Below, piece after piece: positions 5,830 to 17,718 of a stretch of DNA of 20,000 nt. The stretch lies in IMG/VR virus record IMGVR_UViG_3300024265_000044. One strand, given 5' to 3'. The first letter of the stretch is position 1. Each line of letters starts with the position of its first letter. Source of the stretch: an uncultured virus (IMG/VR IMGVR_UViG_3300024265_000044) (taxonomy: Duplodnaviria > Heunggongvirae > Uroviricota > Caudoviricetes). The notes under the pieces were generated by a model that was not told the DNA's origin, did no database searches, and saw nothing but the letters and a program-made list of their open reading frames with translations. A program made the translations under genes and the position numbers.

Positions 5830-6017
5830 TGAATCGTTCAGAAGAACAAGCGGCTCAAGTGCCGATCTACTGGGAGGTGGGTTCATTTCCGCCAGATTAC
5901 ATTCTGGATAAGCCTGTCGGGTGTGGGCATTGCCACCTCACGTCACGGATGGCGTACGTCGACATAGATGGTTTCATCTTCTGTTCGATGAGGTGTCTCC
6001 ACTGGGGGCGCCGATGA
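5829..6017 (+). CDS. Small Zn-finger-like protein
   Basis: TAATG overlap; CGHC...FCSMRC (TRASH/MYM-like pattern). Confidence 0.6.
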   Translation: MNRSEEQAAQVPIYWEVGSFPPDYILDKPVGCGHCHLTSRMAYVDIDGFIFCSMRCLHWGRR

Positions 6018-6029
6018 ATCGTTCAGAAG
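5829..6029 (+). repeat. 16-bp direct repeat ATGAATCGTTCAGAAG at the starts of two adjacent genes
   Basis: Exact copies at 5829-5844 and 6014-6029. Confidence 0.9.
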
Positions 6030-6634
6030 TCGTAGGCACCACTTTTGGACTCTGGGTGGTCGTTGAACACATCAGCGGTCGGCATGTGCGCGCGCGTTGC
6101 GCCTGCGGTGTGGTTAAGATCGTGCGTTTGGATACTTTGAAGTTTGGGCAAAGTCGCTCTTGTGGATGTTCGAAAGTCACAGGCCATTGGCAATCGTGCA
6201 TCGTATGTGGCGCGCCTGTTTGGATAACTGGCAGAAGGAAGAAACTGAATTCAAGGTTCTGCTCTCTTTCGTGCTCGGTGAAGGATCAACACCGAAAACG
6301 CATTGAGGCTGAACCGGTTGGCGCACGGTTTGCTCGATTCGTTCGTCTGAATGGTGAGTGTTGGGAATGGAGTGGCGCGGTCAACCTCCAAGGCTACGGA
6401 ACATTCATGCGAGACGGGCGAGTCGCGGGACCGCGCGCTTCTGAATTGGCGCATCGTGTTTCATGGACGTTGATCAACGGGCCGATACCGGATGGATTGT
6501 TCGTCTGTCACAAGTGCGACAATCCACCGTGTGTGCGACCAGATCACCTTTTTCTTGGTACACCGGCCGCCAACAACCGAGACAGGTGCAAAAAGGGTCG
6601 TTGCCGTCATCCTGGTCATCAGAGGGCGTTGTGA
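6014..6634 (+). CDS. HNH homing endonuclease (HNH_3 type) with N-terminal Zn modules
   Basis: ECWEWSGA..GYG...AHRVSWTLINGPIPDGLFVCHKCDNPPCVRPDHLFLGTPAANNRD; N-terminal GTTFGLWVV..RCACG..SRSCGC and CIVC..FCSLSC. Confidence 0.93.
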   Translation: MNRSEVVGTTFGLWVVVEHISGRHVRARCACGVVKIVRLDTLKFGQSRSCGCSKVTGHWQSCIVCGAPVWITGRRKKLNSRFCSLSCSVKDQHRKRIEAEPVGARFARFVRLNGECWEWSGAVNLQGYGTFMRDGRVAGPRASELAHRVSWTLINGPIPDGLFVCHKCDNPPCVRPDHLFLGTPAANNRDRCKKGRCRHPGHQRAL

Positions 6635-7137
6635 GAATTCCCGTGTTGGCCGTGGATCCAGGCGTTGCAAATTTCGGCATCGCAGCGATCGACTGGACGC
6701 CGCGCGGGCCGCGAGTGATCGCGATGGGTTACATGGAGACCGAGATGCGACGCAAGGAGATCGCAGAGGATGCGCGCGAGCGGATCGATCTCATAATGCC
6801 GATGCTGGATCAGTGGTACGAACGCCACCGACCGACGCGGATCGTCGCCGAGGCCTTCACCTTCCAACAACGAGGGATCGATTGGAAGGCGATGCAAACG
6901 CTCAGGCTCCTCGGTCGACTCGAAGAGTGGGCCGTCCAACATGGTTGCACCTATGAGGAGATCCCGACCGGCTCGGTTAAGAGTCGGATCGGTGCCGGCA
7001 AGAAGGCGACCAAAGAGGATGTGCAACGGTGCGTCGTGCGGCTCACCGGTTGCAAGCTTCCACCAACCAAGAAGAAACGCAGCCACATCGGCGACGCCAT
7101 CGCCGTCGGTGTCGCCGCGGGAGGTACCAGACGATGA
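6631..7137 (+). CDS. ruvC: RuvC-like Holliday junction resolvase
   Basis: VLAVDPGVANFG (catalytic D), IVAEAF (catalytic E), VKSRIGAGKKATKEDV, HIGDAIAVG; GTG 6631 overlaps the HNH stop. Confidence 0.88.
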   Translation: MRIPVLAVDPGVANFGIAAIDWTPRGPRVIAMGYMETEMRRKEIAEDARERIDLIMPMLDQWYERHRPTRIVAEAFTFQQRGIDWKAMQTLRLLGRLEEWAVQHGCTYEEIPTGSVKSRIGAGKKATKEDVQRCVVRLTGCKLPPTKKKRSHIGDAIAVGVAAGGTRR

Positions 7138-14297: not shown

Positions 14298-15155
14298 ATG
14301 AGCAAACGCAGTCGGCAACGCAAGCGCAAGAAGAGCCGCGAGAAGGACAACCAAGGTTGGCGCAACGGTGGGATCGTCGCGCTCGACCTCGACCCCACCG
14401 ACCACGAGGACGATCCGAACCGGAAACCGAGCCCGCGCATCCATGGCGTCGCGGTGTTCAGAGGCCTCGAGGCGTTTGGCGCGATCCCCGAGCTCGCTTG
14501 GCTGTTCTCGGCGTCGGCGTGTGAGCTCGGCTTCACGTCAAGTTGGGACTCGCTCACCGCGATCGCCATGATCGGCGGTGGCGAGAAGGCACACGGCGAC
14601 GCCAGCTCGACGCTAGGGCCGCCAGAGCACATGCAACGAGCCGCCGGCCTACAGCGGCGGATCCTCGGCCGGCTGAAACAACTCCCGCCGCGGCTCCAAG
14701 CCATCATCGAGATCGCGTACACCGATCGCCGTTACCGAAATCCGGACGTCAACAAGTATGGGCCCGGCATCGTGGCGATCGTCAAGCGAGCGCACTACGC
14801 CAAGGCCGCCCTCGCGCGCTCCCCGCTCGGTCAAGAGCTCGCCCTACTCCAAGCGCTGTTGATGGGCTTTGCGGATATCGTCAAGACGTTGCCGGATTGG
14901 TCACCGCTCGAGGCCGAGCTCCACGAGGCGCACGAGGATCTTGACATGCGCGAGCTCAACGCCGCGCAATCCCTGTTGACGCGCGCCCATGAGGCCTACA
15001 GGCGGACCAAGGCACCGCCAGAGGTGCGCAAGCGGAAGCGCCGCAAGCCGTCCAAGCGGCGGCCGGCCGACTCGATGTTCATCGCTGAGGCGTCCACGGG
15101 GGCCGGGAAGCGTCGGTTGGTGCCGGTGCCGATGGCGATGGCGTGCAACCTCTGA
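14298..15155 (+). CDS. Hypothetical protein, possible late-gene regulator
   Basis: Long ORF with typical codon usage; LKQLPPRLQAIIEIAY weakly resembles the sigma region 4.1/Q-like pattern; function inferred from position only. Confidence 0.6.
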   Translation: MSKRSRQRKRKKSREKDNQGWRNGGIVALDLDPTDHEDDPNRKPSPRIHGVAVFRGLEAFGAIPELAWLFSASACELGFTSSWDSLTAIAMIGGGEKAHGDASSTLGPPEHMQRAAGLQRRILGRLKQLPPRLQAIIEIAYTDRRYRNPDVNKYGPGIVAIVKRAHYAKAALARSPLGQELALLQALLMGFADIVKTLPDWSPLEAELHEAHEDLDMRELNAAQSLLTRAHEAYRRTKAPPEVRKRKRRKPSKRRPADSMFIAEASTGAGKRRLVPVPMAMACNL

Positions 15156-15442
15156 GCATCGCCGATGCTGCCAAGCGGTTGCGCATGACCAAGCGCGGCG
15201 CGCTGGAATACCTGCGCGAGATGGACGAGAAGCACCGGGCCAAACATGGCGCGCTGTTGTTCCGTCGAAGCGCCAAACCCAACGGCAAGCTATGGGTCGA
15301 CATCGCGGTCCTCGCCAAGATCCGGCCGGACAAGTTCGCCGAGCTCACCGAGGTATCGGCGATGGTCGCAATCAACTCGCGCCTCGAGGCCCTCGAGGAC
15401 GAGGTCGAGGACATCAAGCGAGAACGGAAGCCGCGCCGATGA
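15143..15442 (+). CDS. HTH DNA-binding protein (excisionase/MerR-like) with C-terminal coiled coil
   Basis: LSIADAAKRLRMTKRGALEYL...GKLWVD; stop overlaps the MTase ATG. Confidence 0.65.
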   Translation: MQPLSIADAAKRLRMTKRGALEYLREMDEKHRAKHGALLFRRSAKPNGKLWVDIAVLAKIRPDKFAELTEVSAMVAINSRLEALEDEVEDIKRERKPRR

Positions 15443-17346
15443 CGGATTGGGGTTGGCGGATCGAGCTTGGCAATTGCCTCGACGTTTTGGCGATGCTTCC
15501 CGATGAGTGCGTTGACGCCGTAGTCAGCGATCCGCCTTACGGTCTCGGGTTCATGGGCAAGGCCTGGGATCACAGTGTACCGGGGCCGGAGTATTGGCGA
15601 GCGGTGTTGCGTGTCATGAAGCCAGGTGCACACCTCGTCGCGATGGGCGGAACGCGGACGGCTCACCGGCTCGCATGCGCGATCGAGGATGCCGGCTTCG
15701 AGCTCAGGGATTCGATCGCTTGGATTTATGGGAGCGGATTCCCAAAAAGTTTGAATATATCGAAAGCGTTAGCGGATGAAAGATGTGGTTGTGATGAGAG
15801 ATCCAAAGGATCCGAGCCGGTTTTGCAACACGACATGCGACCGGTGCGGAGCGGGGATGTATCGGCGGCCGTGTCGACTGCGAGAGAACCGGGGCAAGTT
15901 TTGCAGCCGGTCATGTCGGAACAAGGTGCACCTAAACACCGGCCCGCGGAAACCGTTGCCGCAAATGCGCGGCGCGAACAACCCAGCGTGGAAGGGGGGC
16001 GTTACCTACCGGAGGCGCAAGGGGAACTACCCGATCTCGGTGAAGTACGTTCGCTGCCCGGCGGAATTGATGACGATGGCGCGCAAAGACGGTTACGTCA
16101 TGGAGCATCGACTGATCATTGCGAGGTTGGCGGGTCGACCGTTGACGCGAACGGAAGTGGTGCACCACGTCGATCACAATCCGATGAACAACAACCCGCC
16201 GAACCTGGAATTGTGGCCGGACAATCGGAGCCACAAGTTAGCGGAGCATGGCCGGCATGTGGAAGGTGCGGCAAACCGCGTATCCCTAGCGGCCTAGGCA
16301 CCGCGCTCAAGCCGGCATACGAGCCGATCATCGTCGCGCGCAAGCCGCTCGACGGCACGGTTGCCGCCAACCTCGAGCGACATGGCACGGGCGCGATCAA
16401 TGTCGACGGGTGCCGGGTCGGGACTGACAAGCGAACATACAAGGGGAGCGGCGTCAGTCACCAACGATACAGCGATGCGGGTGCGGGTCTCAGAGATGGC
16501 CGCGGCGCGGAAATTGAGTTTTCGGCCAACGGTCGTTGGCCGCCCAACTTGCTCCTCGCGCATTTGCCCGAATGTCGGCGGGTCGGGACGAAACGGGTGA
16601 AGGGTGCCCAGAATACTGCGGGGCCGCTTGGCGGTTATTCAGGCAGCGAGGGGAGCTACGAAAGGGGAACGGGGCGCGAGTACGGTGAGGCCGAAACCAT
16701 CTCCGCTTACGATTGCGCCGACGGTTGCCCGGTGCGGGCTATGGGCGAGCAGAGCGGGGAGCGGCCCGGCATGTCGGGCGGTGGCTCCCATGCGCCGGAC
16801 TATCCCGGCGGCATGTTCGGCGGCATCGACGCGCCGCACTTGGCGCGCAACGACTCCGGCGACGCTTCCCGGTTTTTTCCACAATTCGAGCTCGGTGAGA
16901 TGGACGCGCCGTTCCGTTACGTCGCCAAGGCGAGCAGAGCAGAACGCGAGGCCGGTTGCGAGGACCTACCCGCCAAGACGGCGGCCGAGGCGACGCATAG
17001 CAAGGAAGGGCAAGCGCGGCTCGACTCACCGCGCACCGGCGCGGGTCGGACCGCTGAGAGCGTCCGCAACCATCACCCCACCGTCAAGCCGGTCGAGCTC
17101 ATGCGGTGGCTCTGTCGGCTCATCACGCCACCGGGTGGGCTCGTCCTCGACCCGTTTTGCGGATCGGGAAGCACCGGCGTCGGCGCGACCGCGGAGGGTT
17201 TCCGGTTCATCGGCATCGACAAGGATCCGGACTATGTCGCGATTGCGTCGGCGCGCATCACTCACCGGGTCGGCGACGTCGGCGCCATGAAGCCGCCGCA
17301 AGCGCCAAGCAACCACAACCGCGCGCCACAGTTAAAGCTGTTTTGA
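15439..17346 (+). CDS. Orphan DNA methyltransferase, N4C/N6A beta class, 635 aa, with large internal insertion
   Basis: VVSDPPYGL (motif IV) precedes VLDPFCGSGSTG (motif I); WIYGSGFPKS, GTALKPAYEPI, GRWPPN, HPTVKPVELMRWL; ATG 15439 overlaps the upstream TGA. Confidence 0.95.
   Translation: MTDWGWRIELGNCLDVLAMLPDECVDAVVSDPPYGLGFMGKAWDHSVPGPEYWRAVLRVMKPGAHLVAMGGTRTAHRLACAIEDAGFELRDSIAWIYGSGFPKSLNISKALADERCGCDERSKGSEPVLQHDMRPVRSGDVSAAVSTAREPGQVLQPVMSEQGAPKHRPAETVAANARREQPSVEGGRYLPEAQGELPDLGEVRSLPGGIDDDGAQRRLRHGASTDHCEVGGSTVDANGSGAPRRSQSDEQQPAEPGIVAGQSEPQVSGAWPACGRCGKPRIPSGLGTALKPAYEPIIVARKPLDGTVAANLERHGTGAINVDGCRVGTDKRTYKGSGVSHQRYSDAGAGLRDGRGAEIEFSANGRWPPNLLLAHLPECRRVGTKRVKGAQNTAGPLGGYSGSEGSYERGTGREYGEAETISAYDCADGCPVRAMGEQSGERPGMSGGGSHAPDYPGGMFGGIDAPHLARNDSGDASRFFPQFELGEMDAPFRYVAKASRAEREAGCEDLPAKTAAEATHSKEGQARLDSPRTGAGRTAESVRNHHPTVKPVELMRWLCRLITPPGGLVLDPFCGSGSTGVGATAEGFRFIGIDKDPDYVAIASARITHRVGDVGAMKPPQAPSNHNRAPQLKLF
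15776..16297 (+). CDS. HNH homing endonuclease nested in the +1 frame within the methyltransferase
   Basis: CDRCG..FCSRSC, GANNPAWKGG, DGYVMEHRLIIARLAGRPLTRTEVVHHVDHNPMNNNPPNLELW...H; alternative ATG at 15794. Confidence 0.9.
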   Translation: MKDVVVMRDPKDPSRFCNTTCDRCGAGMYRRPCRLRENRGKFCSRSCRNKVHLNTGPRKPLPQMRGANNPAWKGGVTYRRRKGNYPISVKYVRCPAELMTMARKDGYVMEHRLIIARLAGRPLTRTEVVHHVDHNPMNNNPPNLELWPDNRSHKLAEHGRHVEGAANRVSLAA

Positions 17347-17358
17347 GGAGCCCATACG

Positions 17359-17718
17359 ATGAGCGATGACGGAAACTACTCGGCCAACGGCGAGCACCCG
17401 CCGATCGACCTCGACGAGCTTGCGGCATTGATGGCGCGCTTGGAAGCCAAGCCCGATCCGCTCGTTGCGCTCTGGCTAGGCACCGAAGCCTTCGAGGAGT
17501 TCAAAGAACGCGCCGAAGAGCTCGCGACGATTCCCGATGACAGTTGCGACCGCTATGCGCTCCAAGGAGTCGAGATTCGGCCGCATGCAAGCCTCAAGGG
17601 CCGGACGGTCGTGCCGGTCTATCGGTACCGTCGAGAGCTCACACCGGCGGAGCGGTTTCGCAATCCGCGCGGCGAGTACACCGGGACGCCTTTCAAGCTC
17701 GCCGAGTCGAAGCCATGA
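17359..17718 (+). CDS. Hypothetical phage protein
   Basis: SD GAGGAG; ATGA overlap downstream. Confidence 0.72.
   Translation: MSDDGNYSANGEHPPIDLDELAALMARLEAKPDPLVALWLGTEAFEEFKERAEELATIPDDSCDRYALQGVEIRPHASLKGRTVVPVYRYRRELTPAERFRNPRGEYTGTPFKLAESKP

Follow-up and report, generated by a model that had tools for sequence, protein, structure and literature searches.

How can a gene for a DNA methyltransferase (MTase) hold the complete gene of an HNH endonuclease in a shifted reading frame and itself stay open from end to end? The question is raised by a 20,000-nucleotide (nt) stretch of DNA from an uncultured virus (IMG/VR record IMGVR_UViG_3300024265_000044), the whole of which is called the window below. 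Homing endonucleases usually ride in introns or inteins. Here, it appears quite probable that the HNH gene belongs to a splice-free mobile cassette, which sits in a permissive loop of the MTase, carries the HNH in the +1 frame and a stop-free linker in the host frame, leaves the MTase to be read through and spreads by homing. The features on which the argument is built are:

15439..17346, + strand: DNA methyltransferase (MTase) gene, 635 codons, beta-class N6-adenine/N4-cytosine type, stop-free across the insert
15529..15540, + strand: catalytic motif IV DPPY, MTase residues 31-34, read from the translation (at least 90% conserved in a 93-sequence alignment)
15763..16287, + strand: insert relative to short-loop alleles without it ('empty' alleles), about K109-P283, 175 codons (about 525 nt), from alignment with the insert-free loci L119, L113 and L152
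15776..16297, + strand: nested HNH endonuclease gene, 173 residues, +1 frame of the MTase, with a Cys4 zinc finger at the N terminus followed by an HNH_3 core
16297..16314, + strand: conserved motif GTALKP, directly 3' of the insert, its first G being the last base of the HNH stop
17155..17178, + strand: S-adenosylmethionine-binding motif I FCGSGSTG, MTase residues 573-580 (F573, G575 and G577 at least 90% conserved in the 93-sequence alignment)

The initial annotation had described an MTase frame without stops from 15439 to 17346 and, inside it, a complete 173-residue HNH in the +1 frame ending with a TAG (16295-16297) at GLGTALKP. Open reading frame (ORF) listing and translation bear out the former, the stop-free stretch extending over 14989..17346, and coordinates, Pfam and PHROGs bear out the latter. 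The frame relation follows from (15776-15439) mod 3 = 1. The HNH ATG spans the MTase codons D113/E114, directly after GSGFPKSLNISKALAD, and its TAG takes two bases from the end of the L286 codon and the third from the start of the G287 codon of GLGTALKP, hence the nested ORF is flanked in the MTase by GSGFPKSLNIS and GLGTALKP. The closest empty alleles read GSGFPKSLNLG-NGRGTALKP; relative to them the limits of the insert are uncertain by a few codons, and the HNH ATG lies about 13 nt into it. The corresponding loops of 74 insert-free MTases range from about 7 to about 135 residues.

The nested ORF matched the Pfam family HNH_3 with an E value of 9.1e-6 (25.7 bits against a curated cut-off of 24.8) and the HNH endonuclease family PHROG 20891 at 1.6e-19. 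Conservation reaches at least 90% in 47 columns of a comparison of 40 HNHs from inserts of the window's type ('window-type'), and in 46 of these the window protein carries the consensus residue, the sole departure being I115, which is M in 36 relatives. Among the conserved columns kept are the four zinc-finger cysteines, H111, H130, H131, N139, N143, N150 and H153. Among 49 HNH sequences there is no variation at H131, N139 and N143, and conservation is at least 90% at H130, N150 and H153; the window has all six. An AlphaFold2 (AF2) model of the HNH reached a mean predicted local distance difference test score (pLDDT) of 85.7. Its best match in VIA-align was the homing endonuclease I-HmuI (1u3e_M; Z 5.5, root-mean-square deviation 4.8, 79 residues), followed by a next row at Z 3.3; other His-Me nucleases occur further down. 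The first 56 residues are similar to zinc fingers of the treble-clef type.

Selection acts on both overlapping frames

When the window HNH ORF was shuffled 20,000 times among synonymous codons, the MTase frame remained open in only 0.28% of the shuffles, with a mean of 4.5 stops, and the third frame of the window contains 12 stops against 11.7 expected from the same shuffles. Relatives were then collected with the HNH protein as query, giving 15 loci from reference genomes and metagenome-assembled genomes of several phyla together with the best 80 of 132 IMG/VR relatives, i.e. 95 loci. In 80 of them the HNH lay between two same-frame MTase halves, one base ahead of these, and the MTase frame was stop-free in between. 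The others comprised five loci with no match to the MTase C part downstream of the HNH (the contig ends in some, and L005 and L056 have other layouts), two contigs with the C half of the MTase only, five loci with no MTase on the HNH strand (including the most distant HNHs), two with the MTase halves in different frames and one in which a stop interrupts the MTase frame. A further 80 loci were fetched with the MTase C part as query. Over both fetches, the host frame was open in 88 of the 90 MTase loci that have the HNH between the halves, and the HNH was in the +1 frame in all MTase-flanked loci except two of the type of the published ShiLan domain (+2; see the last section).

The window-type inserts, 41 distinct sequences with the window included and with a GC content of 0.38-0.67, contained no stop at all in the MTase frame against 258.7 expected from synonymous shuffles, and 373 against 337.8 in the third frame; three loci reassigned to the intein type described in the last section were not counted. 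Relatives at 38-44% GC, for which 10-12 stops are expected, are open as well. Selection thus keeps the host frame open. The initial annotation had read about 173 open codons as a sign of selection, which the shuffles support, and the comparison of homologues with and without the insert that it proposed found the MTase frame of homologous inserts rarely stopped and host-frame stops depleted.

Since the HNH is in the +1 frame, host codon position 3 coincides with HNH position 2, and the two kinds of selection therefore leave different footprints. Column entropies were calculated by codon phase in a codon alignment of 37 inserts and are given for host codon positions 1/2/3. At the flanking motifs GFPKS and G.GTALKP they were 0.39/0.29/1.62, as for a selected host frame. 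In the insert core the values changed to 1.41/0.96/0.83, the HNH third position being the most variable, which reveals purifying selection on the HNH frame. Near the insert ends, at four cysteine columns of the host frame, they were 0/0/0.80, indicating that the host frame is again under selection at both ends of the insert.

As a separate observation, locus L060 (1631-2137) carries an HNH-frame stop four codons into the match while its MTase frame is open; it may represent a decaying nuclease in a retained insert.

The insert as a probable part of the methyltransferase

The host-frame product of the insert was examined through the cysteine columns mentioned above and an AF2 model of the MTase built on 93 aligned relatives. 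The cysteines belong to two short blocks:

15784..15792, + strand: N-side cysteine pair C116-G-C118 in the MTase frame (32 of 37 relatives have Cys at the aligned columns, TGT and TGC both occurring)
16249..16278, + strand: C-side block W271-P-A-C274-G-R-C277-G-K-P280 in the MTase frame (Cys in 31 of 37 relatives; AF2 pLDDT of 91 for residues 271-280)

In the model the MTase core is confident (pLDDT above 90), residues 111-120 reach 83 and residues 128-263 stay below 50. The initial annotation had called this stretch of the MTase frame motif-less and apparently disordered; this holds for the middle, but both ends carry the conserved cysteine pairs. Both pairs fall inside the insert when it is aligned with the closest empty alleles, and no such pairs were found in the loops of the 74 insert-free MTases. 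Among the 41 window-type inserts, 34 have both pairs, three have the C-side pair only and four have neither. The ratio of TGT to TGC at the four columns is 21:11, 20:12, 19:12 and 2:29, and in the C-side motif WPxCxxCGKP also W, G and P are conserved, with third-position variation in the G and P codons. Since the cysteines persist although their codons change synonymously in the MTase frame, this frame must be translated within the insert, which argues against removal at the RNA level. Read in the host frame, the insert is a mostly disordered linker with the conserved ends CxC and WPxCxxCGKP.

We consider it an evenly balanced possibility that the cassette brings along a split four-cysteine, probably zinc-binding, clasp, which would tie the ends of the loop of about 175 residues together so that the MTase could fold as if it were short-looped. 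Such a clasp would explain how an unspliced insert of 175 residues is tolerated. It would also represent a third harmless route for a homing endonuclease into a coding gene besides introns and inteins, based on structural sequestration rather than on splicing, and could guide the design of proteins that carry inserted cargo and of entangled gene pairs. No mention of the cysteine pairs was found in the two papers on the ShiLan domain or by further literature searches: the word 'clasp' does not occur in the text of PMC11855218, nor do 'cysteine' and 'zinc' in that of PMC9957025, and the supplements or the authors' GitHub may hold a wider survey.

Mobility, translation and competing explanations

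A FastTree phylogeny was calculated from the N and C parts of 115 MTases, with the inserts left out; 55 of these genes were insert-free, 32 of the window type, 27 of the intein type and one of another type. On this tree the window-type insert required 21 gains or losses, at least 10 of which are forced by well-supported branches. Shuffled labels gave a mean of 28.2 changes, and only 1 of 500 shuffles was as low as 21. Pairwise identities of the HNHs and of the MTase cores were correlated weakly (Mantel r 0.21; 5 of 500 permutations as high), and for the partners of the window HNH, identity is 65-72% in the HNH and 46-54% in the MTase core. The window-type cassette is thus patchily distributed among MTase alleles, and its carriers are mostly uncultured phages and Gram-negative prophages; a relative also lies in a Cupriavidus prophage (L002). 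A disjunct distribution together with an HNH less diverged than its host gene is supportive rather than decisive evidence of homing; according to the text of PMC9957025, Gosselin et al. used the same pattern to infer transfer of the ShiLan domain.

The HNH would have to be translated from within the MTase gene, and the sequence around its start has one peculiarity:

15725..15800, + strand: A+T-rich stretch at the 5' junction (GC 0.44-0.49 against about 0.65 around it), with the candidate HNH starts ATG 15776, GTG 15785, GTG 15791 and ATG 15794

The stretch contains a series of rare codons ending in A or T (AAA AGT TTG AAT ATA TCG AAA GCG TTA). In all 40 insert-bearing loci compared, the bin after GFPKS was lower in GC than the gene itself, by 0.148, against 0.055 in 48 insert-free controls. 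The A+T-rich junction is weakly indicative, being compatible with an unstructured initiation region. A programmed frameshift from the MTase into the HNH was considered separately and rejected, as a TAG one codon before the HNH ATG leaves no room for it.

Taken as a mechanism, the proposal runs as follows. A mobile cassette of about 525 nt would occupy the surface loop between GSGFPKS and GTALKP, and its +1 frame would encode a zinc-finger HNH of the I-HmuI/HNH_3 homing type. The MTase would be translated straight through and stay active with the linker looped out, the four cysteines possibly binding a metal and pinning the loop ends together. The HNH would be made from an internal start in the A+T-rich stretch, either ATG 15776 or one of the nearby GTG or ATG codons. 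It would then cut insert-free alleles near SLN..G.GTALKP, and recombinational repair during co-infection would copy the cassette into the cut allele. The initial annotation had already suggested a splicing-free homing element in a permissive loop with a stop-free host frame, and the 88 of 90 open loci, the codon-phase pattern and the patchy distribution support it.

Several observations weigh against this proposal. The evidence from the predicted HNH fold, i.e. the I-HmuI match at Z 5.5, is modest, though consistent with a homing-type HNH: Foldseek of the model against the PDB gave nothing at E values up to 0.001 (best E 0.79), and phmmer of the HNH against the PDB gave no match at E values up to 1. 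The tree was made with FastTree and has many weak forks, and the insert-bearing and the insert-free loci came from different queries. Within-gene recombination is documented in this MTase family in the text of PMC9957025, so the patchiness could also reflect loss or recombination. When the best candidate starts of the 40 window-type loci were compared with start-like triplets elsewhere in the same genes as null, no enrichment of Shine-Dalgarno sites was found before the HNH starts (mean best energy -4.97 against -4.58 kcal/mol; 18 of 40 beat the null; p 0.79). Sites of -6 or stronger occurred in 14 of the 40 loci, and the best one in the window is weak (-3.3, before GTG 15785). No sigma-70-like promoter was found on the + strand near the junction; no RNA run containing the stretch turned up, and one DNA run contains it and may be its source. 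Finally, nine of the 41 insert-bearing ORFs have no recognisable downstream FxGxG, some of them being cut by contig ends.

Instead of being selfish, the HNH could be one half of a domesticated pair and work together with the MTase, e.g. in a compact restriction-modification or exclusion module that cuts unmethylated host or competitor DNA; by its nesting, the nuclease could not be passed on without the methylase that protects against it. Such a role would suit the strong conservation of the HNH (47 columns conserved to at least 90% among 40 sequences), which exceeds that of its host gene, and its constant linkage to this one MTase family; Arsenault et al. discuss the possibility that the methylase uses the HNH to bind DNA (PMC11855218). 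We nevertheless hold this to be improbable. Many close relatives of the MTase, among the 74 insert-free loci, do without the HNH, whose distribution is patchy and not clade-wide. An HNH of the HNH_3/I-HmuI type is what one expects of a homing enzyme, the intein at a nearby site that houses relatives of this HNH is a classic selfish context, and nothing ties the specificity of the HNH to methylation.

Equally improbable in our estimate is a relic, in which the window HNH would be unexpressed or inactive, the frame would be open because the MTase is needed, and the cassette would persist by vertical descent. The want of a convincing ribosome-binding site or promoter before the window HNH fits a relic, as does L060 with its early HNH-frame stop and open MTase frame. 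A relic agrees poorly with an HNH that has no internal stop and keeps 46 of 47 conserved residues, zinc-finger cysteines and H/N/H residues among them, and with core variation that falls, family-wide, mainly on the HNH third codon position.

Removal of the insert after all, by self-splicing of a so far unrecognised RNA or by protein splicing of a non-canonical kind, would be in line with the usual place of homing endonucleases in introns or inteins, and with the HNH relatives in an intein about 10 codons upstream, yet we rate it as very unlikely. A permissive cmscan search of 15000-17500 against 4227 Rfam families (E up to 10) found no intron family and one unrelated hit at E 7.7. Although cmscan alone could miss an unknown RNA class, the search together with the host-frame selection inside the insert rules against a group I or II intron. 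An intron, moreover, needs neither a length divisible by three nor a stop-free frame, and 88 of 90 loci have both; the synonymous variation of the cysteine codons likewise indicates translation of the host frame. An intein was rejected as well. Pfam detected no Hint or intein family in the MTase protein, the middle of the insert is disordered in the AF2 model, and the ends are wrong: the insert starts at about K109 and ends with ...KPRIP/SG (the slash marks the boundary), i.e. it has no initial C/S/T and no terminal HN, in agreement with the initial annotation.

Chance, according to which long open alternative frames are common in G+C-rich DNA and need no selection, has next to no probability even for a window of about 65% GC with many spurious long ORFs, being ruled out by the 0.28% of open shuffles, the 0 against 258.7 stops and the open frames of low-GC relatives.

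The host gene, its setting and known systems

The 635-residue MTase matched Pfam N6_N4_Mtase at E 1e-26. The order of its motifs, with DPPY (motif IV) before FxGxG (motif I), is that of the beta class, and Foldseek of the model returned CcrM (6pbd_A, E 1.4e-8) and also M.BceJIV, M.MboIIA and M.RsrI (8urk, 1g60 and 1nw8 listed). By motif order and a fold like that of CcrM, M.RsrI and M.MboIIA, the protein is a beta-class amino DNA methyltransferase. It matched gp66 of the mycobacteriophage Starcevich by BLASTP (E 1e-34; 69-76% identity in the N-terminal blocks), and blastn matches are spread over 327 Mycobacterium phage records. The gene likely starts at ATG 15439, which overlaps the stop of the preceding ORF as ATGA:

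15143..15442, + strand: upstream ORF, 99 residues, its stop overlapping the MTase start (ATGA)

This overlap suggests coupled translation; the 99-residue ORF itself has no family match in Pfam or PHROGs. By PHROGs, other genes of the window encode a free-standing HNH, a RuvC-like resolvase, a DnaC-like loader and a minor tail protein. Such neighbours indicate phage or prophage DNA, and we take the window to belong to a replication module of that kind, sampled in a metagenome. The free-standing HNH, the second in the window, is encoded at 5921-6634 (PHROG 826, 2.4e-25). As listed, it overlaps the RuvC-like resolvase ORF (6463-7137) by 172 nt, and the true start of the latter is probably later than listed.

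The closest known system is the ShiLan domain, described in the texts of PMC9957025 (2023) and PMC11855218 (2025) as a 202-residue insert in the mycobacteriophage DNA methylase gp65. That insert leaves the host frame stop-free, shows neither intron nor intein and conceals an HNH in the third frame; its distribution is disjunct, and homing was inferred. The initial annotation had presented the window locus as a candidate for an undescribed system, a claim that fails because the ShiLan domain, in the same methylase family, was already published. We located the ShiLan element in Starcevich gp66 after GTALKP (KP/SYEP.../AFEP; GTALKP/SYEPVCVAVKP), with its HNH in +2. The two elements are alike in residing in the same MTase family and in combining a same-strand, out-of-frame HNH with a stop-free host frame that contains neither intron nor intein. 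Their HNHs are homologous (32% identity over 128 residues, E 6e-16), and I-HmuI is the best structural match of both, though a modest one (Z 5.5) for the window HNH.

They differ in several respects. ShiLan lies between GTALKP and A/S-x-EP, whereas the window insert ends before G-x-GTALKP, about 7 codons upstream. The ShiLan HNH is in +2 (the 'third frame'), begins with a GTG 18 nt into the insert and ends with TAAC, in contrast to the +1 frame of the window HNH, its ATG about 13 nt in and its TAG, which borrows the G of the GTALKP glycine. Host-frame cysteine pairs mark both ends of the insert in the window lineage, and by eye there are none in the ShiLan insert of Starcevich. A tblastn search with the window HNH at 1e-5 retrieved a single phage record, from an uncultured phage, and no mycobacteriophage.

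A second context of the same HNH lineage was found in about 36 relatives, in which it is nested, again in the +1 frame, inside an intein at YG/SGFPKS, about 10 codons upstream of the window site. This is the site of the LAGLIDADG intein in mycobacteriophage methylases, and the in-frame ends of the relatives match that intein (E 2e-6 and 3e-15). In 33 distinct sequences of this type the codon-phase entropy follows the intein frame at both ends and the HNH frame in between; for three of the relatives, Pfam searches with E values up to 0.01 gave no intein family. The loci are:

intein-type loci (e.g. L061:2577-3593): L004, L006, L008, L010, L044, L052-L055, L059, L061-L063, L065-L068, L070, L072-L075
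intein-type loci, continued: L077-L080, L083-L086, L088-L090, L092-L095, L098, L170, L173

Out-of-frame and antisense homing endonucleases in inteins are described by Gosselin, Arsenault and Gogarten in the text of bioRxiv 10.1101/2025.01.02.630785; the out-of-frame case is an endonuclease VII-like enzyme in frame 3, in other host genes, and no out-of-frame HNH in a methylase intein was found among the cases in that text. Since the window lacks an intein, what its insert encodes in the MTase frame would stay in the mature MTase.

The survey also turned up further arrangements. Four loci (L044:2349-5072, L068:2073-5528, L070:2352-4463 and L079:2259-4946) carry two nested HNH genes in one open MTase ORF, one in +1 and one, ShiLan-like and after GTALKP, in +2, so that all three same-strand frames are coding within one gene. 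L041 (3495-5198) has a window-type insert and then a second long in-frame insert after GTALKPAFEP without an HNH match. In L056 (2113-3075) the form is split: the MTase N part ends with a stop at 2556, after which the HNH forms an ORF of its own in that frame, resembling a gene in pieces. The methylases of Awesomesauce (L096:1456-3906) and Willsammy (L097:1459-3639) have the known LAGLIDADG intein at G/SGFPKS, and in Willsammy and its relatives the methylase gene is annotated in two or three pieces.

I-HmuI (1u3e) and mobE belong to the same enzyme class as the window HNH and presumably spread by the same double-strand-break and repair route; mobE is said to lie inside nrdA of the Aeromonas phage Aeh1, in work by Gibb and Edgell from 2007. 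Group I intron-encoded and free-standing HNHs leave the transcript by RNA splicing, occupy the space between genes or divide the host gene into two translated pieces, whereas the window MTase is one uninterrupted ORF. Standard gene callers report the long MTase ORF only and leave a nested out-of-frame HNH invisible; therefore the phenomenon is probably under-counted.

With the intein, the loop and the ShiLan site, one MTase family offers three neighbouring insertion sites, which makes it naturally suited to studying how selfish nucleases spread into a gene. If the clasp is real, the intein and the loop, both occupied by the same HNH lineage, would present two solutions for comparison within this family. 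An HNH hidden out of frame in a phage methylase was already published in 2023-2025, and the window element is a separate, widespread lineage by its site, its frame and its cysteine pairs. Compared with the few mycobacteriophage cases it puts the phenomenon on a firmer statistical footing, with dozens of divergent copies at 38-67% GC, a fixed frame relation and complete avoidance of stops.

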